64,000 bases of DNA, taken from a virus. Lineage: Duplodnaviria > Caudoviricetes. This document shows positions 28,899 through 54,562 of this stretch, one piece after another. A program made the translations under genes and the position numbers. Position 1 is the first letter of the stretch; each line of letters starts with the position of its first letter. The stretch spans positions 13,667 to 77,666 of IMG/VR virus record IMGVR_UViG_2654588144_000016; one strand, written 5' to 3'. The notes below the pieces were generated by a model. The model saw nothing but the letters and a program-made list of their open reading frames with translations, was not told the origin of the DNA and did no database searches.

Positions 28899-28932
28899 AA
28901 CTATTCGCTAAATATCAATTTCACGAATAGTT
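28899..28932. repeat. 34-bp loxP/dif-like palindrome, putative tyrosine recombinase site
   Basis: AACTATTCGCTAAA-TATCAA-TTTCACGAATAGTT: 14-bp arms with 2 mismatches and an asymmetric spacer. Confidence 0.65.
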
Positions 28933-32821: not shown

Positions 32822-33085
32822 ATGATGTCCGACAGCGAAAACAAATATAAGGTCGGGGAAACAGGATTGACAATGTATTCTTCGATTTGCAGATGCGATT
32901 CCTGCAAAGAGGAATTCTTTGCAGATTTTTTTTTAAAAATCCTAGATACCAGTATTGCCCTCATTGTGGGCGTATGTTTGTCAGTTGGAATCATGCTGAC
33001 ACAGAAAATCAACACTAACGCAACTGACACTCCCGCTCCATGGCTTCGACCAGCAGCAGGTTTACGACCTGCAGGCGGGATTTAA
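32822..33085 (+). CDS. Small protein; zinc ribbon split by a T9 tract
   Basis: CDSC in frame 0, CPHC in the -1 frame after T9 at 32926-32934. Confidence 0.5.
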   Translation: MMSDSENKYKVGETGLTMYSSICRCDSCKEEFFADFFLKILDTSIALIVGVCLSVGIMLTQKINTNATDTPAPWLRPAAGLRPAGGI

Positions 33086-33881
33086 GCACTTGCGGCGGCC
33101 CCGTACCCGTCTACAAGCCAACGCAAGCCGGTAACCCAAAGACACCAACCACGCCCCGGTGATGTAATCCGGCGCTTAACGGTTGCGCGATAGCATCCAG
33201 CACACAGGCAATACACCACCCTACAAGCTACGGGACGGGACGCAGACGGGAGGCGTATTCCCTGAGGGCAAAAATCAAAAATGAGAGGAGGAGCCGACCA
33301 TGAGTAACCGCTCACGTAGTCCGCCGACACATCAAAACAGTCCTCCCACGGTATTCAGTCCGTCAGCCGTCAGCCGGTACGGGGACTTTTGCACGTTTGC
33401 AACCGCATATTTAGCCGCGTAGCCATTTTATGCATTTGTGGCATATTGCAAAGGTAGCGCCTATAAAGTCCCATAGCGGGGCTTGTGGTGCGTGAAACCG
33501 ATATTTTAGGATTGTATGTTATCGCCGATTGTGGTATTATACGCTTATAGTAGATATTGTGTGCGCCGGTATGATAAACTACGCCAGTTTGGACAATCTT
33601 CTTTCAAACTGACATAATGCCGCCTGGAAGGCAAGGTATGTTCCTAAACAGTTTTATCAAAATCCAAAGCAAATCCGATGCAAATTCAAAATCAACTTTT
33701 CGTGATTTCACCAATCACCAAAATTTAAAAATTCTCCGAAAAATATTTTTGACATTCTTCTATCAGATCTCCTGCTCCCGGGGGGTATCAAAAAACGTTA
33801 CCTTGTTTGCATATTTTCAATTTTCCATTGTATCAACTCAATCTGTTCCAGATATTTTTTTGCTGTCAAACCAAAGCCCCC

Positions 33882-34916
33882 CTATCCAACATAACGGGCA
33901 TGAGCTTGTCGTACCGTTTCTTTGCTTATTTTTGCATAGCACTTAAGTGTTGTATCAACTTTTTCATGACCAAGCACTTCCTTTACCATCTCAATTGGTG
34001 CGCCCTTATTAATCATATCTGTTCCTACTGTACGCCTAAAAACATGAGGTGTAATTCTAACACCATCTAAGTCCGCATCACGTTCTTTTATTTGATTAAG
34101 AATATTTCGTACTGTCTTGTCCCCTATGCGGCTTTGAGGCCTATGTGGTGATACAAACAACGCTGGGTTATCATCATTACGGCTGTCGATATATCTCCAA
34201 AGATGCAATGCCACTTGTCCATTTAAACATACTTGCCGTTCTTTTCTTCCCTTTCCATAAACAACAGCAGTTTTACGATGAAAGTCCACATCTGCAATAT
34301 CCATTCCGCATAGCTCAGATACCCTTATGCCTGTTACATATAACATATCACATAATGCCAACTCAAATTCATTTTCACAAGCGCATCTTACCATTTCGCG
34401 TTGTTCTGGCTGCAATGTCGAGCCTATTCTATATTCCACCCGCGTTTCTTTTAATTTCTTAGCTGGATTATTTGGCAACAGGCCCTCTGTATACAGAAAA
34501 GAGAAGAAACTACGTATTGATATAAGTTTACTATTATAGGTCCTATCCTTCCATTTCCGCACTACTTTCCCATATCCAAGATATCCTTTTAAATCCTGGT
34601 ATGTAATCTCTGTAACATTTTTATTTATATGTGCCAACATATTTTTTAAATTGTATTTATAATTATTTATACTACCATCAGTGCACCCATCTAATTTCAT
34701 CTGAAACAAATAAGCGTTAAGGTATTCCACTGACCTATATATCTCATTGGAAAGAGCCGTTTCTTCTGTGAAAAACTGAAAACCAGATAGGCACATATTA
34801 AGTATCTGTTTTACTTCATTGAGTCGTTCCTGTTCTTCGATGACATCTACAATATTATCCATCACACGCCTGACAACATCATCCATACTTACCTGTTCTG
34901 CCATATATTTCCACAC
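33882..34916 (-). CDS. Tyrosine recombinase (XerC/D-like)
   Basis: Intact R (TGIRVSE), K (GKGRKER), HxxR (HVFRR), H (LGHE), Y (CYAK). Confidence 0.93.
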   Translation of the reverse strand: MWKYMAEQVSMDDVVRRVMDNIVDVIEEQERLNEVKQILNMCLSGFQFFTEETALSNEIYRSVEYLNAYLFQMKLDGCTDGSINNYKYNLKNMLAHINKNVTEITYQDLKGYLGYGKVVRKWKDRTYNSKLISIRSFFSFLYTEGLLPNNPAKKLKETRVEYRIGSTLQPEQREMVRCACENEFELALCDMLYVTGIRVSELCGMDIADVDFHRKTAVVYGKGRKERQVCLNGQVALHLWRYIDSRNDDNPALFVSPHRPQSRIGDKTVRNILNQIKERDADLDGVRITPHVFRRTVGTDMINKGAPIEMVKEVLGHEKVDTTLKCYAKISKETVRQAHARYVG

Positions 34917-34925
34917 ATCCTTTCC

Positions 34926-34954
34926 TTGTAATTTTGTACAGGATAGGTTATAAT
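34926..34954 (+). promoter_or_regulatory. Promoter antisense to the recombinase leader
   Basis: TTGTAA-17-TATAAT followed by a hairpin and T-run ending ~35010. Confidence 0.55.
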
Positions 34955-35010
34955 TATCCTATCCAAAGATGAAAAGCCCTTCAGCCGCCAAGCACACGGG
35001 GCTTCTTTTT

Positions 35011-35024
35011 CGTACATATGTTCT
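35011..35024 (-). promoter_or_regulatory. LexA/DinR (Cheo) box-like site upstream of the recombinase
   Basis: AGAACATATGTACG vs Firmicute consensus GAAC-N4-GTTC, one mismatch. Confidence 0.55.
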
Positions 35025-35060
35025 TTTACGATGTTTTTTATTGCCGGGGTACTCCCCGGC

Positions 35061-35393
35061 TTATTTCATTTCAATCTCAATATCACATTCATCTTTCAGC
35101 ACTGAACGGATATCATCCAGTGTGTACAGCCCCTTATCAAACTGCCTATAAAACTCGATACAGTAATCCACGAACCGCTGTTCCCGACTCTTTCCATCCA
35201 CTTCCCTACGCATCAGTTGACCAAAATGGTCCTTGAACATTAATACTGGAATGCCCAGCATCATGAGAAAAGCAGTCTCTGCCGCGTCATGGGTAGCCTC
35301 TTGTTTAATTTCCCGCAATTGGTCTCTGGATAGATTATATGTAGGCTGTTTTCTGTTCTCTCGTTCTACGCGTCGCCTTTCCGCTCGTGTCAT
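35061..35393 (-). CDS. Conserved hypothetical phage protein
   Basis: MTRAERRR start; ORF with RBS. Confidence 0.7.
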   Translation of the reverse strand: MTRAERRRVERENRKQPTYNLSRDQLREIKQEATHDAAETAFLMMLGIPVLMFKDHFGQLMRREVDGKSREQRFVDYCIEFYRQFDKGLYTLDDIRSVLKDECDIEIEMK

Positions 35394-35445
35394 AATATCT
35401 CCTCACTCCTTCGGCAAATTATGTGACTTTATCATCCTTACAGTA

Positions 35446-35850
35446 TCAAATTTTTTCTCTATAAATACGTTCTATTTCTTCCAATAAGACATGTATTAAT
35501 AGATTCTTGATGAATTGACTTTCTCCGAATTCCTTCCCCAAATCTTTTATTCCATATATAAGACCATCCCAGTATTCATCAGAATCATTGGGGTCACTAT
35601 ACTTCTTAAACAGTTTCCATGTATATGTAAATGCCCTCTGGTAATCCTTTTCCAATAATGGCTCACCACCTGCCTTGACTCTCTTTATTTCTTGCCAAAC
35701 GGCTAGGCAAAACAGCCGTCTCATGACTCCGATATCATGCTTCGATAGCATTTCTTCTATATGCTCCTTCATGACTTTTTTCCAGTTTTTCATCAGCATC
35801 CATGCATCTGTATAAGCCTGCCAGTACCTCTTAAGTTGTTCTTCGCTCAT
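35446..35850 (-). CDS. Hypothetical protein
   Basis: ORF with RBS. Confidence 0.7.
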   Translation of the reverse strand: MSEEQLKRYWQAYTDAWMLMKNWKKVMKEHIEEMLSKHDIGVMRRLFCLAVWQEIKRVKAGGEPLLEKDYQRAFTYTWKLFKKYSDPNDSDEYWDGLIYGIKDLGKEFGESQFIKNLLIHVLLEEIERIYREKI

Positions 35851-35917
35851 ATTCCACCGCCTTTATTTGCACGCCCAGCACCCGTACCGTATCCGGCCCT
35901 TGTTGTTGCGCTGGCCA

Positions 35918-36139
35918 TCACACGCGCGGCGCCCGTTGTCTATGTAACACTGTCTCATAATACCGTATCACTCCCTTCGGTGGCCGGCGCAGTCCCGGAA
36001 CCGGGCACAGGCTGGTATACATGTACGGCGGCGCCGTCCGGATGCGCTCCTTGATGGCCTCGTCAGCCTGGGCGGCCAGAGCCTTGCTGCGGTCGATACG
36101 GCTGACCTTAGCCTGCTTACTGTCTGCTTTCTTTCTCAA
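35918..36139 (-). CDS. Hypothetical protein
   Basis: TTG start with GGGAGG RBS. Confidence 0.55.
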   Translation of the reverse strand: MRKKADSKQAKVSRIDRSKALAAQADEAIKERIRTAPPYMYTSLCPVPGLRRPPKGVIRYYETVLHRQRAPRV

Positions 36140-36172
36140 TCAGGTACCTCCCTTCGTATCACAAATGTCAGT

Positions 36173-36373
36173 TTAGTCGATAACAAAATCAAACCAGTGA
36201 CAGTTAAAATCTGTCTCTTTTTCCGGAATTGGCATACAGACACCCACCGCATCTTTCACGTATAGTTCACCGTTAATTTCTATGACAGTCATGGGATAAT
36301 AGCCAAATCTTCGTACTTTGCAGTCGATTTTTTTACCCACAAGGTCTTTTGCGTTGCCCTGATATAATTTCAT
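36173..36373 (-). CDS. Hypothetical protein (cassette gene)
   Basis: Bounded by two junction sites; GGAGGAGG RBS. Confidence 0.7.
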   Translation of the reverse strand: MKLYQGNAKDLVGKKIDCKVRRFGYYPMTVIEINGELYVKDAVGVCMPIPEKETDFNCHWFDFVID

Positions 36374-36410
36374 TTATTTTTCCTCCTCCAAATGCTAATT
36401 TTCCTATTGC

Positions 36411-36812
36411 TCAGTCTATCCACCAGTCCTTCCCGTTCTCTATCTCCTTTTGTGGCATCAATTCCCCTTTCCATTTATCCAACAATCCACATGGATACAA
36501 AGAAAATTCCAGTTCCGGCAGACGTATTGTCAATTCATCCTCTGCCTTGTCATCCCTGTTCAATGCTGGCTTAAATCTGTTTATGTAATAAATTTCATAC
36601 AAGAACATATCTGCTTCCGTCTGGCACGTGGCCGTTTCGATATGTGTTACACTGAAAATGTCTATCAGCTTGTGCATGGGCAGTTTGAAGAAGTGCCCCC
36701 GCAATCTGCTGTTGATTGTCTGTTTAGTACGCCCCAGGTACGCCACAAACTCTGTTCCATCCGGTCTTCCATAAAAAATTTTATATATTGTGTATACAGT
36801 CTTTTTTCCCAT
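36411..36812 (-). CDS. GIY-YIG nuclease-like protein
   Basis: TIYKI...YLGRT...RLRGH, E..YI...KP.LN. Confidence 0.75.
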   Translation of the reverse strand: MGKKTVYTIYKIFYGRPDGTEFVAYLGRTKQTINSRLRGHFFKLPMHKLIDIFSVTHIETATCQTEADMFLYEIYYINRFKPALNRDDKAEDELTIRLPELEFSLYPCGLLDKWKGELMPQKEIENGKDWWID

Positions 36813-36897
36813 TCCGCTGCCCTACATTTCCGCCTCTATCTTCTGCGGCTTCGCTTCCGTGTATCCTGCTGCCTCCGGTTTTCCCGTAAATTTCGAT

Positions 36898-37173
36898 TTA
36901 ATCGCAAGAAGCTGCACTTGCATCCAACTCAATACCCTCCATCACTGCCCTGGCTTCAAGAACTGCAATATAATCAGTCATGGCGGAAATCTGCATGTTA
37001 TATGTACTTCGTGGGCAGGTTGGAACAAACCCAAGCTCTATTCCCCTGTCCCATTTATTCAGCATATTAGCCAATCCTCTGTATCTGATAACTAACTGCT
37101 GATACTCTGCAATAAATCTCTTTTTGTAATCTGCACTATTCATTCCTTCTACTGTATCCGCTAATTTCATCAT
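36898..37173 (-). CDS. crAss001_48-like helical protein
   Basis: DYKKRFIAEYQQL...QISAMTDYIAVLEARA pattern. Confidence 0.7.
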   Translation of the reverse strand: MMKLADTVEGMNSADYKKRFIAEYQQLVIRYRGLANMLNKWDRGIELGFVPTCPRSTYNMQISAMTDYIAVLEARAVMEGIELDASAASCD

Positions 37174-37287
37174 GTCTTCCTCTTTTCTCCCACACTTAGC
37201 AGTGGGCGGCTAAATTTCGATTTGGTTGACAAAAACATGTAAAATCTGTAAAACACGCTCATGTTAAGCAAATCTTAATTTGAATAC

Positions 37288-37698
37288 TCAGCACTTCTTC
37301 CCCGGTTCTGGCCGGTATGGTTCCGGCAGTGGCATCCATGCAACAACACTTTTCATTTCTTCTCTCCATGCCTTATTTTCGCTATTATCACCGTCAGCAA
37401 CTATGAACCATTTTTCGCATTCATAATAGCAGTATTCAATATCGTATCCTCCAAATTGTTTTGCAAATGTTACAAGGAAAAATTTTGGTTCATCCGGCAA
37501 CTGTTCCGATACTGGAATCCATCTTCGACTCTTCTTTTCTTCCAAAACAGTTATTGCCTCTTCGATAGCATAGTCTTCGGGTTCTGGATATACATATCTA
37601 TGCCCAGACGCAAAAGCCGGAGCACCAATCATATCTGCATAATCCTGTAATGGATTTTGCATACCTTTTAGTAATTCTATTGCTTCTTGCTCTTTCAT
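37288..37698 (-). CDS. DUF551 domain protein
   Basis: WIPVSEQLP...VVAWMPLPEPY. Confidence 0.85.
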   Translation of the reverse strand: MKEQEAIELLKGMQNPLQDYADMIGAPAFASGHRYVYPEPEDYAIEEAITVLEEKKSRRWIPVSEQLPDEPKFFLVTFAKQFGGYDIEYCYYECEKWFIVADGDNSENKAWREEMKSVVAWMPLPEPYRPEPGKKC

Positions 37699-37745
37699 AT
37701 AGTTTCTCCTTTTCCATAGTTAAATTCTAATTTCAGTTGTCAATA

Positions 37746-38012
37746 CTACCACTCCGGAAATGATACTCCGGCAAATAATTCTTCTCTAAAGTGGAACGGA
37801 CACATTTTATATACTTCATTCAATAAACTATTTCGTAATGTTAGGTCTTTCATATCCGCATATCGTAGAATATTACTTCTTATCTCCTTCAAAAAATCCT
37901 CTGTCCATCTGGCTCCGTTTTGTTCTTTTTCTCTCTGTTCTCGTTCTGTCTGTGCAGAAAACGTTTCCCAGGGGAACAATACATGTGATATATATATTTC
38001 TTCTTTCTTCAC
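37746..38012 (-). CDS. Hypothetical protein (cassette gene)
   Basis: GTG start at 38012 behind junction site and AAAGGG RBS. Confidence 0.55.
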   Translation of the reverse strand: MKKEEIYISHVLFPWETFSAQTEREQREKEQNGARWTEDFLKEIRSNILRYADMKDLTLRNSLLNEVYKMCPFHFREELFAGVSFPEW

Positions 38013-38223
38013 GTTTTCCCTTTCTCCGGTATTCCCTAAAATTTCGATATAGTGGATGTGCGCCAGACCGGAACCCCTGGCCGTATGGTCCTCCATTATC
38101 TCTCCATAGGCACATCCGCTGCTGGTCTTACTGGTTGTGCATACACCAGAGCCATGCCAGCTATCTTTACGCAGTCACGGTCCTGCGAATCAGGTACCGG
38201 TATGCGCTGCTGCGTTATAAGCA

Positions 38224-38511
38224 TTATACGGGCATCTGGTATGGACAAGGACTCCCCAGGTAACACCGGTCCATAAGCTCCTCCGCTTCACCGTTCTCCA
38301 GCGCTTTAATAGCCATCTCGTAAGCCTGTATCTGCCTCTCTGCCTCTGCTATAAAATCTATCTTGTCAGGTATCGTGTTTCCGACAATACCTGTACGCAC
38401 CATTTGCTCCCATCCCTTATCTGTGGTTTGGTAGCGGTATGTATTAATGTGTTCTTGTAATATCGCAATTGCTCTTTGTCTATCTATCATCCATCTACCT
38501 CCATGCGCCAC
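38224..38511 (-). CDS. Hypothetical protein
   Basis: Coupled ORF. Confidence 0.6.
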   Translation of the reverse strand: MAHGGRWMIDRQRAIAILQEHINTYRYQTTDKGWEQMVRTGIVGNTIPDKIDFIAEAERQIQAYEMAIKALENGEAEELMDRCYLGSPCPYQMPV

Positions 38512-38789
38512 TCAACATCCCATTTGATTCTCTGCCCACAGTGTCCGCAATATGGATAGCCTGAATTAACCCCTTCACCGCAAGATGGACACAATCCGAT
38601 ATTCTCTTTGTCTTTAATAAAACATCTTTCATCCTCTGGTTTTTTTGCTATCTGTTTCTGTAGAGCTGATATGACAGCCTCAACATTTTTCAATGGTATA
38701 TGTCTAAATGACTTAACCTCTTGGCATCCCATCAATTTTGCATTTTTAACTACCATTGATAGGTCTTTCGCGATTCCTTCTTCAATCAT
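38487..38789 (-). CDS. Zinc-ribbon phage protein
   Basis: ALQKQIAKKP...CPSCG...YCGHCGQRIKW. Confidence 0.75.
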   Translation of the reverse strand: MIEEGIAKDLSMVVKNAKLMGCQEVKSFRHIPLKNVEAVISALQKQIAKKPEDERCFIKDKENIGLCPSCGEGVNSGYPYCGHCGQRIKWDVEWRMEVDG

Positions 38790-39121
38790 CTCTCTTCCTC
38801 CTGATGCATTTCGTCATATTGGTACTGTAAACGGCATTCTTTACAGGTTCCGTAAGGTTCTCCATCTCCACCCATGGTTCTTAATCCGGCACATAAGCCT
38901 TCTTCCATCCCTGGATATTCAAATTTGGTCATATAGCAATGAGCAATCGCATCTTCAATCCTTTTTTCATCTTCCTTTATCTTTTTGTATTCCCAATCCA
39001 AAAGCATGAGCAAATCCGCTCTTGTTGTCGCATTATGAGTTTCCAGACTTAACTCCCGCTCTATCAAACCCATCTTTTTTTCGTACGGCAACCATTCAAA
39101 TCTTTCTTTGTCATACTTCAT
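38786..39121 (-). CDS. Hypothetical protein
   Basis: Coupled ORF. Confidence 0.65.
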   Translation of the reverse strand: MKYDKERFEWLPYEKKMGLIERELSLETHNATTRADLLMLLDWEYKKIKEDEKRIEDAIAHCYMTKFEYPGMEEGLCAGLRTMGGDGEPYGTCKECRLQYQYDEMHQEEER

Positions 39122-39471
39122 CCCTCTGCCTCCTTATATGGCTCCGGCAATGGCATCCAGGCCAGCACGTCCAGTTTCTCCCACCCATCAGTAAATGATG
39201 CTCCGTTCCAAAGTGCCATAATCACACAGTCTGTATTTTTGACAGACACTAAATATAACTCCAACGGTTTGTTATCATATAGCGGATTTTCTTTTGGTTT
39301 CTTTGGGAGCCGTTCAGAAGCGGGAATCCACGCATCGCCCAGGCCCGCAATAGCTTCCATTGCACGCCAAACTCCATTAGCCGCTTCTTGGTTATGTTCT
39401 TCTCTTTTTATGCGCTCATACAGTCTTGCTAATGTGTCGATCGCTTTTTCTTTTTCCAGATATTTTCTCAT
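39118..39471 (-). CDS. DUF551 domain protein
   Basis: WIPASERLP...VLAWMPLPEPY. Confidence 0.85.
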   Translation of the reverse strand: MRKYLEKEKAIDTLARLYERIKREEHNQEAANGVWRAMEAIAGLGDAWIPASERLPKKPKENPLYDNKPLELYLVSVKNTDCVIMALWNGASFTDGWEKLDVLAWMPLPEPYKEAEG

Positions 39472-39546
39472 CTTCTCTTCTCCTTCCCGGCATGCGTCCG
39501 AAGTGAATGTTCAGCTCCGTCCGCCGCTTTGTCTTGATTTTGGTTA

Positions 39547-39717
39547 CTAATCTGGCATTCCAAACTGCTTATATGTCGCCGTGAATGTAAATTTTTTTCC
39601 ACATTTACAGCAGGTTTCTGTTACTTTACAGGTTTTACTTTCATCGTCGCAGTCTATTTCGGTTTTACCTGGCTGGAATCTATGACCACCAGTTAAAAAA
39701 CAGCATATTCTTTTCAT
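39547..39717 (-). CDS. Small Cys-rich protein (56 aa)
   Basis: MKRICCFLTGGH...CCKCGK, coupled to upstream stop. Confidence 0.6.
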   Translation of the reverse strand: MKRICCFLTGGHRFQPGKTEIDCDDESKTCKVTETCCKCGKKFTFTATYKQFGMPD

Positions 39718-39926
39718 TCCTCTGTCTCCTTCGCTAAATGCATGCCAAATGAGTCAATTGCCTTCATGGCCTCTCCCAAATCATCAAACACCCTTCCATC
39801 GTACGAGATATCATCAATCCGGTACCCCAGTTCATCTCCATCGGATGGGGTTGCTACCCTCAAGGTGCAGATATCCATACCTTTGTATTCCGTTACCTTT
39901 GCGTATCTATCATTCAAATGTTTCAT
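39714..39926 (-). CDS. Hypothetical protein
   Basis: RBS GAGGAG right after a junction site. Confidence 0.65.
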   Translation of the reverse strand: MKHLNDRYAKVTEYKGMDICTLRVATPSDGDELGYRIDDISYDGRVFDDLGEAMKAIDSFGMHLAKETEE

Positions 39927-39946
39927 TGCATTTACTCCTCTAAATA

Positions 39947-40348
39947 TCAGTTTTGCGGATAAAGCAAATCCGGATTGTCAAAAATGTTGCCAACAACATC
40001 AGCATTTGCAAACATTTCAAGCGTATACTGTTGATAGCTATCGTCTATATCATCCACAGCAAATCCTATATAATCTTCCGTATACCACATTACTTTTCCG
40101 ACTGCCTTAATTGCATCATGGTAGATAATATCATTCTCCCAAATTTCTCTACCGTTCTTATCGGTTATTCCGGCATACTGACAGACGGTTTTAGGGTCTA
40201 TTTCAATCCATTCCGCATAACGTTCGTCATATCCATGGTCATCATCATATACCGGCAAGATATAGTGATGTCCTCTGCATTTTACATAATAGCCTTTCTC
40301 CCACTCGGCATTGTCCAATCTCTTTGCCTTACATAAATATCTGTCCAT
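39947..40348 (-). CDS. YopX family protein
   Basis: CQYAGITDKNGREIWENDI and VVGNIFDNPDLL motifs. Confidence 0.9.
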   Translation of the reverse strand: MDRYLCKAKRLDNAEWEKGYYVKCRGHHYILPVYDDDHGYDERYAEWIEIDPKTVCQYAGITDKNGREIWENDIIYHDAIKAVGKVMWYTEDYIGFAVDDIDDSYQQYTLEMFANADVVGNIFDNPDLLYPQN

Positions 40349-40376
40349 TTTGTTCCTCCGTTAAATATTAATTTTG

Positions 40377-42008
40377 TTATGCAAACTTTAGCTGTATTTC
40401 ACTATCATCAATTCTCATATTTGGCATCCGCTCACCCACTTTGAGATACGGACAATTTGCCTGCACCAGCACCTGTGCCATAATTGGCACCACACTATTT
40501 CCGATGCGTGCAACCTGTTCGCTTATAGGATATGGTTTCCGGTCAATATCCCGGTCAAGAATATAATCTGTAGGAAATCCCTGCCCCAGCATTAACTCCT
40601 TTGGCTTTAACATCCGCAGGAAGATATCCATGATGGCATATTCGTTCCCCAGCACTGTAACCAACGCAAATCTATCTTTCGTCACAATCGTGTGAAGAGG
40701 GCCATTTATGCTCTGACCAATACCACAGCCGTAATACTCCATGATAAATTGCGACACCCAGGTGCATTTCTGAATTATCTCGTCTGCTTCGTTCCCAACG
40801 TTGGAAAGCAGTTCTTCTTTCGGTATCGCCAGCACACTGACCTGTCCGAAGTGTCCCGGAGAGGTGGTAATCGTATGTATCGGCTCTGCCAGAGACTGTC
40901 CAGAACCTGACTTATAAAACTTTGTCAAGAATGCCATAACCAGCCCGTAACGGTTACTTGTATCTATTGTCTGGATTGGCTCCACCAGTGATTGCCCTCT
41001 CACTCCGCTCTTGGTAGTTTCGGAATGATACTGGATAAGAATAGGACTGATTAAGCAATGCTCATTCTTTGTAACTACTGTACTCATGGGTTCTTCCATG
41101 CTACGGTTTCTATCGGCACAAAATCCTGTTTGCCCTATCTGCATGATATATGGTGTTACCACTCCAAATCCATGTTTCCCTGTAATCGTTGGCATTGGCT
41201 CGTGAATATTCTGACCACGGAAATTGTCTCCACCATGATTAACCTGTACAATAAATGGTTCCGGGCAATTAAACACAAACTTCTCCATTCCCCGTGCAAT
41301 CCGATTCATGGTCTTTTCCGCCAGTGGCTTCTTTCTGTCGAAAATAGATTTCCCCATATCCGACAAGTCCAAATACTTCCAGATAGGCTCCCACTTCTTC
41401 AATCCGTCTGTGCCCTTCTTACTATGTGTCGGCTCCGGCCAGATAATCGGCTTACCGTCTCGCCGGAAGATTGCATACCAGCGCTTCCTCGTAGTAGGTG
41501 CTCCATAATCTGCCGCCACCAACTCTCGGCTGTCAAAGTCATATCCGAGAGACTTCATCGCGGTAATGAATTTTTTGTAATCCTCTCCTTTTCGCTCTGG
41601 TATCGGATGGCCTGTCTTGTCCAACGGCCCCCATTGCTGTATTTCCTCCACATTCTCCATGATAATTACATCTGGAAGAATTGCTTTGGTGTGCTTGTAC
41701 ACCGCCCACGGGAGGATTCTCAGTCCTTTTTTTCTTGGCTGTCCTCCTTTCGCTTTGCTGTGACTGGTGCAGTCTGGACTCGCCCACATAAGCGCCACAT
41801 GCCGTCCTCTTACATACTTTTGCAGGTCAACCTTGAATATATCCTCTGACAAATGCAGCGTATCCGGGTGATTAACCTTGTGCATCCGAATCGCCTGCGG
41901 GTCATGGTTGATTGCAATATCAACCGGTCGCCCCAGTGCCATCTCTATTCCTACGCTTGCCCCTCCGCCACCAGCGAAACAGTCAATAATCAAATCTCTC
42001 ATTTTCAA
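40377..42008 (-). CDS. dcm: DNA (cytosine-5) methyltransferase
   Basis: FAGGGG, SPDC, ENV, RKRW and IGNSV motifs. Confidence 0.93.
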   Translation of the reverse strand: MKMRDLIIDCFAGGGGASVGIEMALGRPVDIAINHDPQAIRMHKVNHPDTLHLSEDIFKVDLQKYVRGRHVALMWASPDCTSHSKAKGGQPRKKGLRILPWAVYKHTKAILPDVIIMENVEEIQQWGPLDKTGHPIPERKGEDYKKFITAMKSLGYDFDSRELVAADYGAPTTRKRWYAIFRRDGKPIIWPEPTHSKKGTDGLKKWEPIWKYLDLSDMGKSIFDRKKPLAEKTMNRIARGMEKFVFNCPEPFIVQVNHGGDNFRGQNIHEPMPTITGKHGFGVVTPYIMQIGQTGFCADRNRSMEEPMSTVVTKNEHCLISPILIQYHSETTKSGVRGQSLVEPIQTIDTSNRYGLVMAFLTKFYKSGSGQSLAEPIHTITTSPGHFGQVSVLAIPKEELLSNVGNEADEIIQKCTWVSQFIMEYYGCGIGQSINGPLHTIVTKDRFALVTVLGNEYAIMDIFLRMLKPKELMLGQGFPTDYILDRDIDRKPYPISEQVARIGNSVVPIMAQVLVQANCPYLKVGERMPNMRIDDSEIQLKFA

Positions 42009-42073
42009 AAGGACCCGCTATAGCTTTTCTCCGGCCGGAGGTCGACTCCTTTCATATTTTTCAAAATGTGTGT

Positions 42074-44116
42074 TTAATCAAACGGTATTTCCCCATGTAC
42101 TGCAATGAAGCCATTATCGGTCTTATTCCACCCGTATATTTTGTTTTCGGAAGAATAGTTTTTCAGGCGTTTGGTTTCTGGCTCATAATAAAGTGGGATA
42201 AAGTAATCCATCACACCGCCATCACGGTCTTTAGCAATCTCTATAACGTTTGTAGCCTGGTAAATCTGGTTATCATCTTTCCATCCAAACATCTGTTTAC
42301 TAAGGCGTTTAAAATCCTGATTTACTCTGTGAACAATAAAAGCGTTATCTACAGCGTTGCCCAAATCTGCTGTTCCTGAAATATCATCCAACCGGAGGAA
42401 TCCCATGGCTTTTCTCGGATGTGCCACAAACATGATATGCACATTGTATGGCTTGGCTATCTCACCCTGTAAAGCAAGGATAAACTTGGTCTGTGCCTCA
42501 AATTTATTTTCTGACATACCGGAAATATCAAAGGTCATTAGGTTGTCCAGAATCAGCATATCCAGTTTATCTTTTTCGATTTTTCTCTTAAACTGGTCAA
42601 CTACTGCCTGAAAGTCAAATCCGTATTCATTGTTATACAACCAGAAGTGTTCTCCTAACCATTGTGCTATCTGCTCCTGGTATTTCCGTTGTACGTTGTA
42701 ATACCCTTCAAACTGAGTTGGTTCTGTGTATCCCTTTCCAGCCGCCTGTAAATTCATCCAACGCATAAAGTTCTTTGGTGCCAGTTCCCCGGAAAAAACT
42801 CCAATATTATTTCCAGACTCAACACCATCCAGAACCATTTCAGAAATCACAGAACTCTTTCCAGCTGCTCTCAACCCAGACATAACGGAAACATATCCTT
42901 TTTTCATTCCCCGCAATTTCTTATCAATATCAGCAATTCCAGTTTTGATAAAACGTTCTTCCGGCACTGGAAGATTTAAAATATCCATAGCTGTGTAGAA
43001 TACTGGCTTGCCGTCTACGGCTTCTATTTGCTTTTTAACAGGCTTTTCTTGCTGTCGTGAGTAAATCCTAGCCTCATACTCTTTCTGTCGCTTCTCGTAT
43101 GCTTCAGGCTCATACAACAGCCTTACATCTTTCCATGTCTTGTCCGAGCAAGAATTGTGGAAACAGTGAAATCCGATTGCCCCAGACCTTGCCTGGAAGA
43201 TACAGGCATCTTTTCCTTTATGGTTGCTATCAAATGGACATTGTTCCAAAATATACTTTATACCATCCGAGTAATTGGTTTTCTGATAACGAAGCCCATA
43301 TTTTATCAACCACTCCTCCAGGTCAAATTCATTTGGGCGATACCCATTGTATTTCTGTGGCTTTTCTGGAACCGGCAACATAGCAGCCAGCTTCTCCAAA
43401 TAAGCCTTATCTGTAGGTTCCTTGCTTCCCTCTGACAACAAACGGCTCATTCTGTGTGGATTCTCGGCAGTATTGCTACCTTTCCTTGCCACTGTTCCAT
43501 ATAGTTTGCAAATTCTCGCAGGATTAAAATTCGTTTTATCAATGTCTACACAATCATTACTAAACAACATGTCCAACACAAGGAGACAGTTCTTAATCAA
43601 TGCTTTGTTTTCATCACTGTTCCGCAGTCTAATCTTGTAAAGCAGATGGATTCCATTTCCACTCATAGCCGTTATAGGTTCGTTGAATCCAAGATTTTTC
43701 ATAAAGACATAAACCTTGTTTCCCACTATTTTAGCCTGATTCAGTTGCTCGTCGGTGCTTGATACACCAGATGGACGCTTCGGGTCTGCATCAATAAACA
43801 GCCATTCATATCCAACAATATCCGTATCACTTGTAGTAGGAATCTTCCCCTGAACAATCTGAATAAATTTATCGCGTTGCGCCCTGGAATAACACTCTGG
43901 CTTAATGCTGTTCAGCGTTATGTACACGTTACTGTCAGAAGAATTCAACCTGCTCAGTTGGTCCAGCATGACTTCTACATCTCTAAAATACCCGCTACTT
44001 ACTCTTTTCCCGTTTGCTTCCAAGAAACGGACTTCAAACAGTTCTTCATAATCTTTTAAAGCCTGTATTGTTTTTCGGATTTCATCTGGTTCAAATATCT
44101 TTTTTCCTACTGCCAC
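42074..44116 (-). CDS. Primase-helicase fusion (AEP-like N-terminus, Zn site, SF4/DnaB-like helicase)
   Basis: DADPKR/SGNGIH, CPF..H, GLRAAGKS, ILDNL, VAHPRK. Confidence 0.82.
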   Translation of the reverse strand: MAVGKKIFEPDEIRKTIQALKDYEELFEVRFLEANGKRVSSGYFRDVEVMLDQLSRLNSSDSNVYITLNSIKPECYSRAQRDKFIQIVQGKIPTTSDTDIVGYEWLFIDADPKRPSGVSSTDEQLNQAKIVGNKVYVFMKNLGFNEPITAMSGNGIHLLYKIRLRNSDENKALIKNCLLVLDMLFSNDCVDIDKTNFNPARICKLYGTVARKGSNTAENPHRMSRLLSEGSKEPTDKAYLEKLAAMLPVPEKPQKYNGYRPNEFDLEEWLIKYGLRYQKTNYSDGIKYILEQCPFDSNHKGKDACIFQARSGAIGFHCFHNSCSDKTWKDVRLLYEPEAYEKRQKEYEARIYSRQQEKPVKKQIEAVDGKPVFYTAMDILNLPVPEERFIKTGIADIDKKLRGMKKGYVSVMSGLRAAGKSSVISEMVLDGVESGNNIGVFSGELAPKNFMRWMNLQAAGKGYTEPTQFEGYYNVQRKYQEQIAQWLGEHFWLYNNEYGFDFQAVVDQFKRKIEKDKLDMLILDNLMTFDISGMSENKFEAQTKFILALQGEIAKPYNVHIMFVAHPRKAMGFLRLDDISGTADLGNAVDNAFIVHRVNQDFKRLSKQMFGWKDDNQIYQATNVIEIAKDRDGGVMDYFIPLYYEPETKRLKNYSSENKIYGWNKTDNGFIAVHGEIPFD

Positions 44117-44364
44117 CTCTTTACCTCGCCTTTTTCGTAGGCTTGCTGCTCAACTTTTTTCGCCAGTTCCCGTATCTCGGCAATCGTGGGCGGAAACTTG
44201 TTTTCCTGAATCCATTGAATAACTGCTTTTTTCATCCATTCAAACTCCAAATCTCGCAGACACTCATACCACACATCAGCTTCGGCGACGGATTTTAAAA
44301 GTTCAGTCCTGGAATATGCCCCGCGTAACATGGAAACAATCTCCACAAACTCTTTTTTACTCAT
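44107..44364 (-). CDS. Helicase loader/inhibitor (G39P-like)
   Basis: W...L.D......A........KFPPTIAEI. Confidence 0.8.
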   Translation of the reverse strand: MSKKEFVEIVSMLRGAYSRTELLKSVAEADVWYECLRDLEFEWMKKAVIQWIQENKFPPTIAEIRELAKKVEQQAYEKGEVKRWQ

Positions 44365-45226
44365 TCAGCCATCCCTCCCATGAATTACTGCTGGATTTTT
44401 TATCATCATACTGACCTTCCAGAACTTTCGGGAAATTATTTGGCCTAGCAAACCATTCAAAGTAAATCATCCAACCGCGATTGCCTCCACCTTTCAAAAA
44501 TGTGCTGTCGTTTATTTTTTGTATCGCTTTGAGAACATCATCAATGCCATACTCTTTTATTCTGGCAGAAATCATTTTGTATCGAGTGGAAGTCGATGCC
44601 ATTCTGCTGACGGGATTTATTCCCAACTGGTTCCATGCCTCCACGACTCGTTGGACATCAGTCCGACATATAGTGTCGTCAGACACTATAATATCTTTAC
44701 CTATACCTATCCTATCCTTACCTAACCTAACCTGCGTCTCCCAGGTAGGCGAAGTGGTGTCAATTGTGTCGCAAGTGGTACGCTTTTGGTTTCCACTTGG
44801 TATACCAATGGTTTCCATATGGTTTTCACTTGGTATACCAATGGTTTCCATATGTTTTCCCACTGGTGTACCTTCATCGTTTTTAAATAACTGATACGCG
44901 CCATTTTCTTTAACGGAAAGCATATTTTTTTCCTCAATATATTGTGTCGGTTTGTATCTGTCACTCCGAATGTAATTATGAATAAGCCAATGTTTTATTA
45001 CACACACACCTTCATCGAACTGGATAATAAAACGCTTCATAAGCAGCATGTCATAATCATTTTGGTTTGCTCCAACATTTCGCATTATTTTCTTTGCGTT
45101 ATTCAAAAATCCATCATCATCCGCTCTTAACAAAAGATGGAAATACAATGCTTGTGATGATAATGGCATTTCGGTAAATGCATCACTATCAATGATTTTT
45201 TTCGACATCATGCGTCTTTCTGCCAT
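44357..45226 (-). CDS. Replisome organizer/replication initiator
   Basis: MAERRM, QALYFHL, ADDDGF motifs; internal iterons. Confidence 0.85.
   Translation of the reverse strand: MAERRMMSKKIIDSDAFTEMPLSSQALYFHLLLRADDDGFLNNAKKIMRNVGANQNDYDMLLMKRFIIQFDEGVCVIKHWLIHNYIRSDRYKPTQYIEEKNMLSVKENGAYQLFKNDEGTPVGKHMETIGIPSENHMETIGIPSGNQKRTTCDTIDTTSPTWETQVRLGKDRIGIGKDIIVSDDTICRTDVQRVVEAWNQLGINPVSRMASTSTRYKMISARIKEYGIDDVLKAIQKINDSTFLKGGGNRGWMIYFEWFARPNNFPKVLEGQYDDKKSSSNSWEGWLNE
44794..44872. repeat. Putative replication origin iterons
   Basis: CACTTGGTATACCAATGGTTTCCATATG twice at 33-bp period plus a partial third; palindromic TTGGTATACCAA. Confidence 0.7.
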
Positions 45227-49164: not shown

Positions 49165-50160
49165 TCATCCTCCAATCAACGAATCTAGCACTTGTACTCT
49201 ACTCTGCACCTTATCCGGCTTCGCAGAACCGCTACCAACAGACTTGTTATAAATCTCGCTCACACTGGTTTGGCTGGAATCGAAGAACTTATACAGAATC
49301 TCTTTCAGTTCATCCACCGACTTTCCAGCCCGTAATGCTTTCAGTGCAACATATGTACAGGACACCAGATGGCTTCTAGTCTTAATTTTCTTCAATACAC
49401 GCTTATCTATCTTTTCTTCAGGATTTAAAAGGTCGCTGACTTCCTTAACATAATCAAGGGCCTGTCCAATTTCCTGTACCTGCTCATCTGTAACCGCCGC
49501 TGATTCGATAAGAGGACGAAAGCCTTTTGTCGTGAAGTCCCGGCAATCCGAAAAGCATAATGCCCAGGCTTGCATAGCAACATTTTCGTCATTGTAGCGG
49601 CGCTTCCCTGCTTCAGTAATTGCCCCTGCAATCATTTCATGCTTGGCAATTTCCCGGAATTTCAGAATGCTTTTCGCTTTAACTCTTGTCAGTTCTACAC
49701 TGGTAAGAGGCTTTCCGTTATTAATACGGAAGAACAGTTCTGCAATCTCTTCCTCAGTAATGCCCTCAAAGTAATAGATTGTCAGTGAATAATCCTTTAT
49801 ATTGTCCTGCGCCCACTCTGGAAGTTCTGAAAACTTCAACCTTGAAACGGTTACAGGAAAACCATTTTCATCTATTACTTGCGGAGTATCATCTGATAAA
49901 GGAAACTCTCCATCCAGATATCCCTTAATAGAAAGTGACCTCTGCTGACCATCTAAAGCGTCATACTTACCATCATCTTTCCGTGCAAAGTAGAATGGTG
50001 GAATCGGATATCCCTCTATCATTGAGTGAATCAGCAAGGATTTTCTGGACATATCCCAAACCGGATTTCTCTGAACTGCACAGTCAAAAGAAACCTGTCC
50101 TTTCTCAATCTGGTTCCGCAGCGTTTTACCGCTCCACTGAATGTTTGCTTTTTTCAGCAT
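49165..50160 (-). CDS. DUF262 (ParB-like/GmrS) domain protein
   Basis: QRNPVW, LDGQQR, FFRINNG motifs. Confidence 0.85.
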   Translation of the reverse strand: MLKKANIQWSGKTLRNQIEKGQVSFDCAVQRNPVWDMSRKSLLIHSMIEGYPIPPFYFARKDDGKYDALDGQQRSLSIKGYLDGEFPLSDDTPQVIDENGFPVTVSRLKFSELPEWAQDNIKDYSLTIYYFEGITEEEIAELFFRINNGKPLTSVELTRVKAKSILKFREIAKHEMIAGAITEAGKRRYNDENVAMQAWALCFSDCRDFTTKGFRPLIESAAVTDEQVQEIGQALDYVKEVSDLLNPEEKIDKRVLKKIKTRSHLVSCTYVALKALRAGKSVDELKEILYKFFDSSQTSVSEIYNKSVGSGSAKPDKVQSRVQVLDSLIGG

Positions 50161-52353: not shown

Positions 52354-53496
52354 CTATCCCTCCATCCAGCTTTTATCCACTACAGGAGCTGTTTTTTTCT
52401 GCTTCTGGCTTGCTGTCACATCTGCCATAGTCTTAGGCGGTTCCTTCTGCCCAATGGAGGACGGCTGTTCTGGCTCCATAGGAAACTCCTGGGCATTAGC
52501 ATTGTAAGTGATTTCCTCCTGAACCTGCTGATACACAACATCGTCAAGCTGCCTGTATTCCTGTGCCGCTACTGGATTTCCAAAGTCTTTCGGAATCTTT
52601 TTCATGACGTTGTTACGCATTTTTCGGATAATCATACTTTCTCTAGACTGTGGTTCTGTCCATGCTGGAGAAAGATAAGGCTGCAATTCCGGGCAATCCA
52701 AAATCTTATCCAAATCATTCAGTTCCTTTGCTTTGTCCATGATTTCCTTTTTCTTTTCGGAAATCTGTTTTTTTTGTGCAGGTGTGGCATCATACCGATT
52801 TTCACAAACTCCAAAGGTTTCATTCATCAGATTGTTTGAAAGATGTGCATATAAGTTTTTCAGTACATCATCACGTTCCCCAAAATGAAACTCGGTATGA
52901 CCATCGGCATATTCAATAGGGTAAACCACCCTCACAACTTCGCCTTTCCCAGTTGGCTCCCATTCTGGCGGCTCTACTTCGATACCTTTTCTTTTTCCAT
53001 AAGAAAAACTATCGCCAGACCGGACAAGCCAATATGGGTGCACCATCTTAACCCCCCTGCCAAATTTAGCAGTTAAAGCATCATTCCCATCACCTTCAAG
53101 GCCCATTTCAATTTGTTTTTCCCAAACTGCCTTCTGACCTTTTTTTGCTGTATTTACACTGCGTACCTGAAAGTAGCACTCTCTGGGAACTGCATTAGTA
53201 TTGAGTTTAAGTGCGGCAACGGTCAACAACGTGCTCTGCAAATTTGCCGGGTTGATATCATTGGGAGTAAGTCCCTGATTATGTATCAAACTGTAAATAC
53301 ACCCCATTGCCGCAATTACACACTGTTTGGAATATTCGTCAAAGGTCACGCCACGTTCCTCCAGCATTTGCCGCGTAGATTCTACACAGGCATTTGTAAC
53401 CGTTGCAATCTCACTCCTAAATGCAACTGTAGCTGGCTTAACCGGTGGCTGTACTGTAGTTGAATCCTGTTTATTCTCTGTCTGCTTTACTGCCAT
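52354..53496 (-). CDS. Putative RecT-like single-strand annealing protein
   Basis: RECYF, ESMIIRKMRNN motifs; between AAA ATPase and MBL nuclease. Confidence 0.65.
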   Translation of the reverse strand: MAVKQTENKQDSTTVQPPVKPATVAFRSEIATVTNACVESTRQMLEERGVTFDEYSKQCVIAAMGCIYSLIHNQGLTPNDINPANLQSTLLTVAALKLNTNAVPRECYFQVRSVNTAKKGQKAVWEKQIEMGLEGDGNDALTAKFGRGVKMVHPYWLVRSGDSFSYGKRKGIEVEPPEWEPTGKGEVVRVVYPIEYADGHTEFHFGERDDVLKNLYAHLSNNLMNETFGVCENRYDATPAQKKQISEKKKEIMDKAKELNDLDKILDCPELQPYLSPAWTEPQSRESMIIRKMRNNVMKKIPKDFGNPVAAQEYRQLDDVVYQQVQEEITYNANAQEFPMEPEQPSSIGQKEPPKTMADVTASQKQKKTAPVVDKSWMEG

Positions 53497-53801: not shown

Positions 53802-54095
53802 CTATCTGTCCCCTTTCTGCCCCATTCGGAACATCTGCTTAAAAGTGTCCAACCAGTTCCCCTGCTTATGTGCCATCTTATTGTAATGATGGCTGTTAGC
53901 CAAACGTTCTGACGCGACTGCCACGCTCCCCATAACCTTCCGATTCTGCTGATAACTCCGATGACTTCTCTGTTTATGCTTTAATGCTGTTGCCATGATT
54001 ACTTGTCCTCCTTCTTTTCCATTAAATATGTTGCTTCCATATCGGAATATTTCCAATGATATCCTCCGCAACTCTTTAATTTTCTCTTGCAACAT
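53802..54095 (-). CDS. Hypothetical basic protein (real start probably MATALK)
   Basis: AAGGAGG RBS before internal Met. Confidence 0.55.
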   Translation of the reverse strand: MLQEKIKELRRISLEIFRYGSNIFNGKEGGQVIMATALKHKQRSHRSYQQNRKVMGSVAVASERLANSHHYNKMAHKQGNWLDTFKQMFRMGQKGDR

Positions 54096-54562
54096 TTTGT
54101 TATTGTCGAACTATCCAGTCCCAATTCTAATGATACTTTTCTCGCACTTTCCCATGTTTTAATGTACCTTCCATCTAAAGTTAGTTGAACAACACTCTTA
54201 ATGATTGGAGAGGTTACATGTCCTATTTTTACAGCATGTTTCATATTTTCACTAGGCGTCACCCATTCAAGATTACAAATAGAGTTATCTTCCGTATTAC
54301 CATTGATATGATTTACCTCTCGTTTTTTTAAAGGATTGGGAATAAAAGCAAGCGCAACAAGCCTATGGACAGAAACTGTTTTTTCCTTTCCTTTTGTACA
54401 CAGTTTAACCTTGAAGTACGCTCTCCCATCTTTAAATTGTTTCAAAATTCTTGTCATATCTTTTTGCCGATATTTTAGACTTCTCACACGTCCCAAACTA
54501 CTTACCTGATACAGTCCTTCATATCCGGGAATATCTCTCCATGTCTCCAATTTATTCTTCAC
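53999..54562 (-). CDS. NUMOD4-HNH homing endonuclease
   Basis: WRDIPGYEGLYQVSSLGRV, VHRLVA, VNHING...N...NLEW. Confidence 0.9.
   Translation of the reverse strand: MKNKLETWRDIPGYEGLYQVSSLGRVRSLKYRQKDMTRILKQFKDGRAYFKVKLCTKGKEKTVSVHRLVALAFIPNPLKKREVNHINGNTEDNSICNLEWVTPSENMKHAVKIGHVTSPIIKSVVQLTLDGRYIKTWESARKVSLELGLDSSTITKCCKRKLKSCGGYHWKYSDMEATYLMEKKEDK

Follow-up and report, generated by a model that had tools for sequence, protein, structure and literature searches.

How does a phage come to carry a patchwork of accessory genes, and what, if anything, lies at the seams where one gene has taken another's place? Whether mosaic phage genomes arise by illegitimate recombination followed by selection or by exchange at short sequences shared at their boundaries has long been debated, and one objection to the boundary-sequence view, in the passages of the account that we cite, is that such sequences are rarely seen (PMC3029335). 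The DNA analyzed here, a 64-kb stretch (the window) out of a 77.7-kb virus record, IMGVR_UViG_2654588144_000016, which is the prophage of a gut bacterium, carries between many of the accessory genes that follow its DnaB-like helicase gene an AT-rich 12-nt word that we call the linker. We argue that the linker marks points of gene gain, loss, and reordering in related phages and that the nearby tyrosine recombinase is not supported as the cutter. As to how the exchanges come about, we favor, at a probability of about one half, the reading that the linkers are a shared boundary element of the accessory-gene region, swapped by short-homology recombination.

What, then, is the linker, and could it be an accident of composition? 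The coding strand of the region is the minus strand, and the strict pattern that was searched, AAAYYRRNATTT, has 13 matches in the window, 12 of them on that strand; 100 dinucleotide-preserving shuffles of the window gave a mean of 2.51 matches (standard deviation 1.6, maximum 7), and none reached 13. Eight strict copies, starting at 36163, 36390, 36888, 37212, 37270, 37722, 39942, and 40363 and so spanning 36163-40374, all lie on the minus strand, each between the stop of one open reading frame (ORF) and the next ribosome-binding site. A preliminary description of this DNA had listed ten sites, among them a one-mismatch copy at 38039 and a variant at 42064, and every one of them is present on the minus strand where it was placed; so, too, are the four said to overlap a stop codon, which is the TAA of a T-AAA overlap at 36163, 36888, and 42064 and a TGA, at motif positions 5-7, at 39942. 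The flanks of the window linkers hold no further common sequence, and matches inside genes are few (e.g., 42312 and, in the late region, 14526). The ten copies, typed where useful by the letters at positions 4-7, are as follows, in the order of the array.

42064..42075, minus strand: linker on the helicase stop, first of the array; AAACACACATTT variant, centre CACAC
40363..40374, minus strand: linker between Dcm and YopX; AAATTAATATTT, 3 nt ahead of the Shine-Dalgarno (SD) sequence
39942..39953, minus strand: CTGA-type linker, its TGA being the YopX stop; AAACTGATATTT
38039..38050, minus strand: one-mismatch linker preceding the 88/116-aa ORF; ATATCGAAATTT
37722..37733, minus strand: linker preceding the DUF551 gene; AAATTAGAATTT
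37270..37281, minus strand: linker behind DUF551; AAATTAAGATTT, then a 58-bp gene-free stretch
37212..37223, minus strand: linker preceding the crAss001_48-like gene; AAATCGAAATTT
36888..36899, minus strand: linker on the crAss001_48 stop, identical to the 37212 copy; AAATCGAAATTT
36390..36401, minus strand: linker preceding the 66-aa ORF; AAATTAGCATTT, adjoining GGAGGAGG
36163..36174, minus strand: terminal CTGA-type linker on the 66-aa ORF stop; AAACTGACATTT

To ask how far the word reaches beyond one prophage, we retrieved 31 IMG/VR loci by the helicase (cited below by L numbers), whose helicases are 48-97% identical, and added the window's own contig for the motif counts; the variable region was taken to run from the helicase to the conserved genes that precede the recombinase. 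Counting unique gene starts with the motif within 50 nt before them, in denominators that hold some spurious ORFs from a simple gene caller, we find the strict form before 26 of 263 starts in the variable region and 1 of 499 elsewhere, and a looser form before 36 of 263 and 2 of 499. Enrichment at junctions, for which the preliminary description proposed a test, is borne out by these counts and by the 13 matches against 2.51 in the window. A k-mer comparison blind to the pattern returns TAACATT (20 vs. 1), ACATTTA, AATTAAC, and ATTTAG, and many of the loci show the same 12-mer downstream of the helicase, always co-oriented with the genes and immediately 5' of an SD. When IMG/VR was scanned for exact copies of AAATTARCATTTAGGAGG, 13 stretches came up (two of them contigs already among those compared), all of them phage loci, 11 with at least two co-oriented copies and one, L042, with the maximum of seven. 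Among bacterial genome contigs, a helicase-based scan found four related prophages, in Lacrimispora, Faecalicatena contorta (two), and Dorea, which are too few for a test of co-occurrence. The linker characterizes a lineage of temperate Lachnospiraceae phages. It is true that the pattern is degenerate and was fitted after the fact, that the spacers are AT-rich in a genome of 42% GC, and that a few matches do fall inside genes, all of which one would expect of a chance likeness among spacers; with no shuffle reaching the observed count, with 26 of 263 starts against 1 of 499, with k-mers that recover the motif unprompted, and with an exact 18-mer that finds only phage loci, 11 of 13 of them arrays, we hold that explanation to be very improbable.

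The anatomy of the word can be read more finely, as AAAY-[TAA/TAG/TGA]-N-ATTT with a GGAGG usually adjoining. In a set of 79 unique copies, which was seeded by the pattern so that only the choice among the allowed letters is informative, the centres (positions 4-7) are TTAA in 28, TTAG in 24, CTGA in 13, and other in 14, and positions 5-7 are a stop codon in 68. A separate count of register took the 83 unique copies that lie outside any continuing open frame and considered upstream ORFs of at least 45 codons and downstream ORFs of at least 35. An upstream ORF stops within -18 to +12 of the motif in 73 of the 83, with the stop embedded at positions 5-7 in 33 and in the T-AAA overlap in 17; an SD and a start follow in 66, and in 42 of these 66 the SD begins 0-4 nt past the motif. 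Stop and SD are both present at 59 copies, the stop alone at 14, the SD alone at 7, and neither at 3.

The site types are also placed in order. The helicase stop bears a copy centred on CACnn, the inner copies are of the TTAR type, and a CTGR-type copy is literally the last in 10 of the 23 arrays listed, with only loose matches behind it in 5 more; L008, L019/L020, L036, and several short loci are exceptions. Such discreteness is easier to reconcile with copies that share a descent than with free convergence. Behind the terminal CTGA-type linker of L031 (3108), L044 (2289, reverse), and L048 (13384) comes a conserved stretch whose TTGACA box, about 25-30 nt past the linker, gives the impression that another transcription unit begins there. 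At four junctions of L027 (13690-16000), the linker survives as a relic with one mismatch (ATTT changed to GTTT twice, one AGTAAC for ATTAAC, and one ending in CATAT), and the motif there appears, from these letters, to be decaying, although the recombinase and the shufflon described below are kept.

Is the linker a signal for transcription? The region holds no excess of promoters (21 promoter-like sites, against 31.9 in shuffles) or of terminators (12 terminator-like sites, against 9.6), and no site of either kind lies at a linker, which fits one polycistronic unit. We considered and rejected the motif as a promoter in its own right, with TAnnAT as a -10 box, since the SD adjoins the motif in 22 of 66 cases and transcription would then start inside or behind the SD. 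An Rfam search of 33000-45000 at E up to 1 returned no match. A tRNA behind the L004 site at 7037, suggested by a T-loop-like run, was likewise rejected, ARAGORN finding none in L004, L003, or L008. A subset of junctions does have a mini-hairpin, CCGG-N5-CCGG, between the linker and the SD, with its 3' arm running into GGAGG (window 36870-36887 and 38020-38038; L004 5851 and 8644; L008 17301; L010 2943; L019 14955), and L031 has a CCTG/CAGG version with the pairing kept; the one behind the 36888 linker is a small CGGG..CCGG hairpin that runs into the SD.

If the linker is a seam, natural variants should differ there, and the genes that the linkers set apart are therefore needed at this point.

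42074..44116, minus strand: DnaB-like helicase, conserved left anchor of the array (Pfam AAA_25, DnaB_C; 31 related loci)
36173..42008, minus strand: cassettes between linkers, whole span (ORFs; Pfam, NCBIfam, and PHROG matches)
40377-42008, minus strand: Dcm (Pfam)
39947-40348, minus strand: YopX (Pfam)
38096-39926, minus strand: multi-gene block with overlapping junctions and without linkers (ORFs)
37746-38096, minus strand: ORF (ORF list)
37288-37698, minus strand: DUF551 (Pfam)
36898-37173, minus strand: crAss001_48-like gene (Pfam)
36411-36812, minus strand: 133-aa GIY-YIG-like gene (weak UvrC N-terminal match, E 5e-4)
36173-36373, minus strand: 66-aa ORF (ORF list)

In the window, the order runs helicase, Dcm, YopX, 70-aa gene; in L001, a linker at the same Dcm end leads to the 70-aa gene instead of to YopX; and in L002, L019, and L020, the helicase is followed by the 70-aa gene. 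Every one of these switches falls at a linker. When the window is compared with all loci by blastn, homology ends at or a few nucleotides from linkers at five places (the helicase site, 40363, 39942, 38039, and 36163) and also at about nine linker-free gene borders, mostly inside the overlapping multi-gene block. Helicase homology to eight relatives stops at, or no more than 4 nt from, the last T of the 42064 linker; high-scoring segment pairs to L001, L002, and L019 begin inside the 39942 linker and those to L006, L010, and L019 stop at the 38039 linker; and homology to L003 resumes 7 nt ahead of the 36163 linker, which is found with its right flank in both L003 and L042. A near-identity search with 33800-44200 against deposited phages gave one 294-bp match (an Enterocloster phage), which holds no information on synteny.

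Closer variants come from pig-gut metagenome runs of four studies, each with 52-70% of the region's words, whose contigs we compared with the stretch at a likeness of at least 90%. They yielded 12 joints and 107 loose ends, of which 24 were shown; the contigs may be chimeric and the metagenomes mix strains, so the joints are to be read as natural variants and not as proof of events in a single genome, and where no contig covers the stretch, a missing joint carries no weight. In the joint 39946->42070 (three of four runs), the helicase is fused to the 70-aa gene inside the core shared by the 39942 and 42064 linkers, with the hybrid AAACAC-G-TATTT as a result. The joint 36151->39942 (two runs) has lost 3.8 kb between the two CTGA-type copies, at 36163 and 39942 (AAACTGAYATTT), and ten letters within it are a diverged copy of the spacer behind 36163. 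The joint 37273->38470, with one end in the 37270 linker, is seen in all four runs. One contig "goes back," from 40348 to 36888, and carries the crAss001_48 cassette with both its linkers, the 37212 copy forming the left edge, directly before the YopX start; it has a different gene order. A linker lies at one end or more of 6 of the 12 joints and at both ends of 3; the linker-free joints, at junctions or inside genes, are 36007/36103, 38492/38792, 38802/39737, 39312/39727, 39471/39727, and 39988/40127. Loose ends fall at 42065, 38050, 37279, 37281, 37212, 37218, and 36894, among others: of the 24 shown, 10 are no more than 6 nt from a linker, and 2 more are at the SD past 36163, while positions that close to the ten linkers make up 2.3% of the stretch. 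Relatives and metagenome contigs thus agree with that part of the preliminary description that saw a cassette array: in the comparison that it had itself proposed, breakpoints of gain, loss, and reordering fall in or at the 12-bp core.

Two further observations belong to the junctions. Between the linkers at 37270 and 37212 lies a 58-bp "empty" unit (37224-37269) with neither ORF nor SD; several metagenome contigs break at both its edges, and it may be the remnant of a lost cassette. Identical 12-mers flank the crAss001_48 gene in the window and genes in L008, L031, L034, and L037/L039, and we considered target-site duplication; since two centres account for two thirds of the copies, we judge that chance would give about five such pairs, and the idea was rejected.

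How might a word of 12 letters be exchanged? The linker, whose centre is a stop codon in the fixed register AAAY-TAA/TAG/TGA-N-ATTT, closes the upstream gene and passes straight to the SD that serves the following gene, all inside a single long early operon. Because the linker with its adjoining GGAGG is the only sequence common to otherwise unrelated cassettes, it would act as a short homology for swap, deletion, or reordering, with co-infecting or resident relatives as partners. The likely route would be homologous recombination of a relaxed kind, or the annealing of strands, through the RecT-like system that the phage itself encodes, and selection would keep only those joints that leave both genes intact. 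A role in expression, as the supply of a stop codon and of an unstructured leader, may be suggested by the register. The candidate enzyme of short-homology exchange is the following protein.

52354..53496, minus strand: RecT-like single-strand annealing protein (phrog_2185, E 4e-181)

At least 12 of the related loci have a member of its family, and the recombination genes upstream of the array are those for the RecT-like protein, an SbcC-like ATPase, an MBL-fold nuclease, an SSB, and an ERCC4 nuclease; the same module holds a free-standing NUMOD4/HNH_3 homing-type endonuclease (53999-54562, minus strand). Rad52/RecT-type phage recombinases, according to the sections of the study cited, drive mosaic formation on diverged DNA, and one of the loci assayed there had a longest identity of 11 bp (PMC3945230).

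Several findings weigh against short homology as the explanation, and we would rather set them out together than ask the reader not to worry about them. The linker has 12 nt, or about 18-20 nt with the SD, which is under the minimal pairing segment of 23-27 bp that the same sections give for Red-beta (PMC3945230). Its fixed AAA and ATTT around a free position 8 look like a recognition pattern, for a protein or for RNA, rather than plain homology, and such position-specific conservation favors recognition by some factor. Half of the joints avoid the motif, so the motif is not needed for exchange, and, with no SD or start behind 14 copies, the linker cannot serve translation initiation everywhere. 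Nor, in the variable region, do linker junctions clearly exceed other spacers in how often they are broken: in a comparison that is weak, since its calls include spurious ORFs, the same upstream neighbor is kept at 16 of 79 linker junctions, 76 of 311 other spacers, and 122 of 283 overlapping junctions. And in several lineages, a Xer-like gene lies behind the last linker even where the enzymes are 27-29% identical.

That last point leads to the recombinase, which the preliminary description had placed, intact, 1.2 kb downstream of the array in a prophage that already had a serine recombinase. Both are there, the start of the first (34916) lying 1.25 kb past the last site.

33882-34916, minus strand: tyrosine recombinase, 344 aa, intact (Pfam Phage_integrase, E 4e-33)
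from 62639, no strand given: large serine recombinase (Pfam)

The best NCBIfam matches of the tyrosine recombinase are XerA, XerC, and XerD, all under their cut-offs; the integron-integrase model TIGR02249 scores 70.6 bits, in two stretches, against a cut-off of 265, and NF011946 scores 42.3 against 435. The nearest solved structures are XerA (3.7e-29), XerC-like, and XerD, with IntI4 weak (E 1.6e-7). Pfam assigns the domains Phage_int_SAM_4/1 and Phage_integrase, and the XerA alignment covers residues 75-338 with the R, H-x-x-R, and H...Y positions kept; core-binding and catalytic domains with intact catalytic residues are thus predicted, without an arm-binding domain, as in armless enzymes of the Xer/Rin type; the domain assignment leaves out the first ~65 residues. 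Judged by these matches, the enzyme is an intact, Xer-like recombinase and not an IntI. Its gene is co-oriented with the array and stands at the far end, behind four conserved genes. Ahead of it are a LexA-box-like element, GAAC-N4-GTAC (35011-35024, minus strand), which we take to differ from the LexA box by a single letter, and an inverted repeat, GGATAGG-N10-CCTATCC (34937-34961, minus strand), found also in L027.

What else might such an enzyme do? A 13-bp site, AArTAGCAATTTA, occurs in six copies on the contig, as three inverted pairs 540-640 bp apart (contig positions 2411, 3048, 7365, 7902, 28097, and 28679); the last pair is at 14431 and 15013 of the window, and the other four copies precede it. 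Inverted pairs of this shufflon site are found also in the records of L019, L027, L009, and G013 (a G number denotes a whole record). Enzyme and site are distributed as follows.

Window: Xer-like enzyme present; shufflon site present
L019 and L027 records: Xer-like enzyme present; shufflon site present
G013 (enzyme 27% identical): Xer-like enzyme present; shufflon site present
L009 record (G002): Xer-like enzyme present; shufflon site present
L011 record (G001, 86% complete): no PF00589 match; one lone site copy, no inverted partner
G014 (complete, terminal repeats): the only PF00589 match in a 412-aa frame far from the array; no site
Four further, incomplete records: Xer-like enzyme present; no exact site found

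In G014, no Xer-like gene follows the array, and its PF00589 match, which we assume to be an integrase, lies 13 kb away. L011 has three pattern matches and two near-matches to the linker and no tyrosine recombinase, whether one looks where synteny would put it or through the whole of its record, which is 86% complete; L027, with recombinase and shufflon, has one pattern match besides the four relics. The neighboring Xer-like recombinase is more likely the invertase of a tail-fibre shufflon. Elsewhere in the window, at 28899-28932, we note a 34-bp near-palindrome that is centred on a junction-type 12-mer, AAATTGATATTT, and has a TTGACA close upstream; the L019 and L027 records share its 24-bp core without a change, no further copy was found in the other sequence compared, and a related palindrome lies about 200 bp from a tyrosine recombinase gene in the L009 record.

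With this in hand, the two other serious readings can be weighed. The preliminary description had proposed an integron-like system. In the form weighed here, the Xer-like or another site-specific enzyme would cut and rejoin the linkers, cassettes would leave as circles and reinsert, and the TTAR and CTGA types would be heterospecific. There is a good deal to be said for it. Joints inside the core keep the 12-nt register, as the hybrid found in three of four runs does; one deletion runs from motif to motif between two CTGA-type copies, and one contig has a permuted order; fixed arms around a variable centre are typical of recombinase core sites; a CTGR-type copy ends 10 of 23 arrays and has only loose matches behind it in 5 more; the Xer-like gene lies about 0.4-1.8 kb past the last site in the window, L003, L034, L035, and L044 (27-29% identity); a LexA-box-like element precedes that gene; and the shufflon site, no longer than 13 bp, shares the outline AAxT-N4-ATTTA with the linkers. 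For Rin, moreover, the passages cited predict an invertase that is XerD-like and armless and has sites of 11 bp (PMC6109161). Against all this stands an enzyme that has no IntI-specific match (70.6 of 265 bits), junctions without attC-type inverted repeats, linkers in L011 with neither PF00589 match nor syntenic recombinase, and, conversely, a recombinase and shufflon in L027 with only decayed linkers. The recombinase tracks the shufflon site (both occur in the window, G007, G008, G013, and G002, and G001 and G014 lack inverted pairs), and 6 of 12 joints fall at junctions without the motif. Differing centres block strand exchange in classical tyrosine recombination, and neighboring copies do differ in their centres. 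We find the integron-like reading unlikely, and a system in which the neighboring recombinase, a XerA/C/D-like enzyme co-oriented with the array at its far end, shuffles the cassettes is not supported. It is rather doubtful, too, that the armless Xer-like shufflon recombinase acts in addition on the direct AAAY-stop-N-ATTT linkers, with TTAR and CTGA as two heterospecific addresses; if it did, the phage would carry an integron counterpart that does without hairpins and that shuffles anti-defence and other accessory genes when SOS induces the enzyme.

A purely regulatory site is possible, though we would not bet on it: a phage or host factor would dock on the linker, for example as on a stoperator-like repressor site in DNA or on a translational operator or RNase site in the polycistronic mRNA, and breakpoints would share its place for no other reason than that both are limited to the space between genes. 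The copies are indeed asymmetric, point one way, and sit in short intergenic spaces, often on stops, which matches the stoperators of L5/Bxb1 as the cited passages describe them (PMC3029335). The SD stands at a fixed distance (0-4 nt in 42 of 66), the mini-hairpins CCGG-N5-CCGG of a subset, with the CCTG/CAGG variant, send their 3' arm into it, the conservation is position-specific, and the space from stop to SD is little longer than the motif, so that any viable breakpoint must fall there. Yet the motif is the same across helicases 48-97% identical and on other backbones, whereas stoperators vary with immunity group; it keeps to the variable region, with 1 of 499 starts outside, whereas a silencing site would be expected genome-wide; its copies fall into discrete types rather than varying freely around a consensus; and neither a candidate binding protein nor, at E up to 1, an Rfam match was found.

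Is any of this already known under another name? The array resembles an integron in its co-oriented, mostly single-gene, promoterless cassettes, in a site behind each of them that often holds or touches the stop codon, and in a tyrosine recombinase nearby, and classical integrons have reportedly been found in phage genomes. Here, however, there is no integrase of the IntI clade, no attC hairpin, and no divergent integrase with an attI or Pc at its side; the recombinase is neither divergent nor beside the insertion site and instead stands at the far end in the orientation of the array. Of the eleven short inverted pairs in 36000-42200, none brackets a linker as attC, an imperfect inverted repeat of about 60-140 bp that folds into a hairpin 3' of its cassette, would, in keeping with the earlier statement that attC hairpins are lacking, and one (38051-38061/38110-38120) adjoins the one-mismatch linker at 38039-38050.

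A closer likeness is to the promoter-early stem-loops (PeSLs) of T4-type phages, mobile regulatory cassettes that, in the portion of the study cited, run from a stop codon in AT-rich DNA to the SD, mediate shuffling, and give mini-circles (PMC2839356). PeSLs, like linkers, are short repeats in a hypervariable region that reach from the upstream stop to the SD and mark points of insertion, deletion, or replacement between close relatives; breakpoints do fall within the linker, although not exclusively, 6 of 12 joints lying elsewhere. The differences are plain. PeSLs, which exceed the linkers several times in length, include a sigma-70 promoter and a terminator stem-loop, whereas the linkers, of 12-13 nt, hold no such element and lie inside one operon with the stop in a fixed register inside the element, and mini-circles were shown there by experiment, whereas we have contig joints alone. 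Short boundary sequences have been proposed as sites of homologous exchange between modules and, in the passages cited, were not found at most mosaic boundaries (PMC3029335); in contrast to those of lambdoid phages, the linkers are present at roughly half the junctions in a single region and are kept throughout a lineage. The linker differs from both PeSLs and the boundary-sequence proposal in that it is much shorter, has neither promoter nor terminator, and holds a stop codon in fixed register.

The stoperators of cluster A mycobacteriophages are asymmetric sites of 12-13 bp as well, in many copies, in short intergenic spaces, and in one orientation; they are genome-wide and specific to an immunity group, whereas the linkers keep to one region (the same 1 of 499 starts outside it), are identical across diverged phages and backbones, and have no linked repressor. 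The Rin shufflon resembles ours in a Xer-like recombinase beside a short asymmetric crossover site in a receptor-binding gene (11 bp there, 13 bp here), but Rin inverts and its sites lie in coding sequence, whereas linkers are direct repeats between genes with another centre. In the open-access literature, we found no description of this linker.

As for the genes themselves, Pfam bears out most of the labels given before (Dcm, YopX, DUF551, of which the window holds two genes, crAss001_48, the helicase, and the tyrosine and serine recombinases), and the label GIY-YIG has the weak UvrC N-terminal match behind it and no Pfam match at E 0.01. Elsewhere in the window are a TnpB gene (OrfB_IS605 with a Cas12f1-like TNB; 61149-62288, plus strand) beside the serine integrase and a gene for a GmrSD_N-domain protein (49165-50160, minus strand).

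What does a 12-nt word between genes mean for the way in which such phages evolve? In this lineage, a boundary word is plainly visible and is conserved in gut Lachnospiraceae prophages, and near-identical variants differ by joints inside it. A conserved linker that can be seen, together with natural joints, turns the old question of mosaicism into one that is testable in a culturable lysogen. The word gives a rule for delimiting the accessory cassettes of gut phage genomes, which probably serve in host takeover or anti-defence, and it offers a natural "stop-linker-SD" adaptor for the building of operons.

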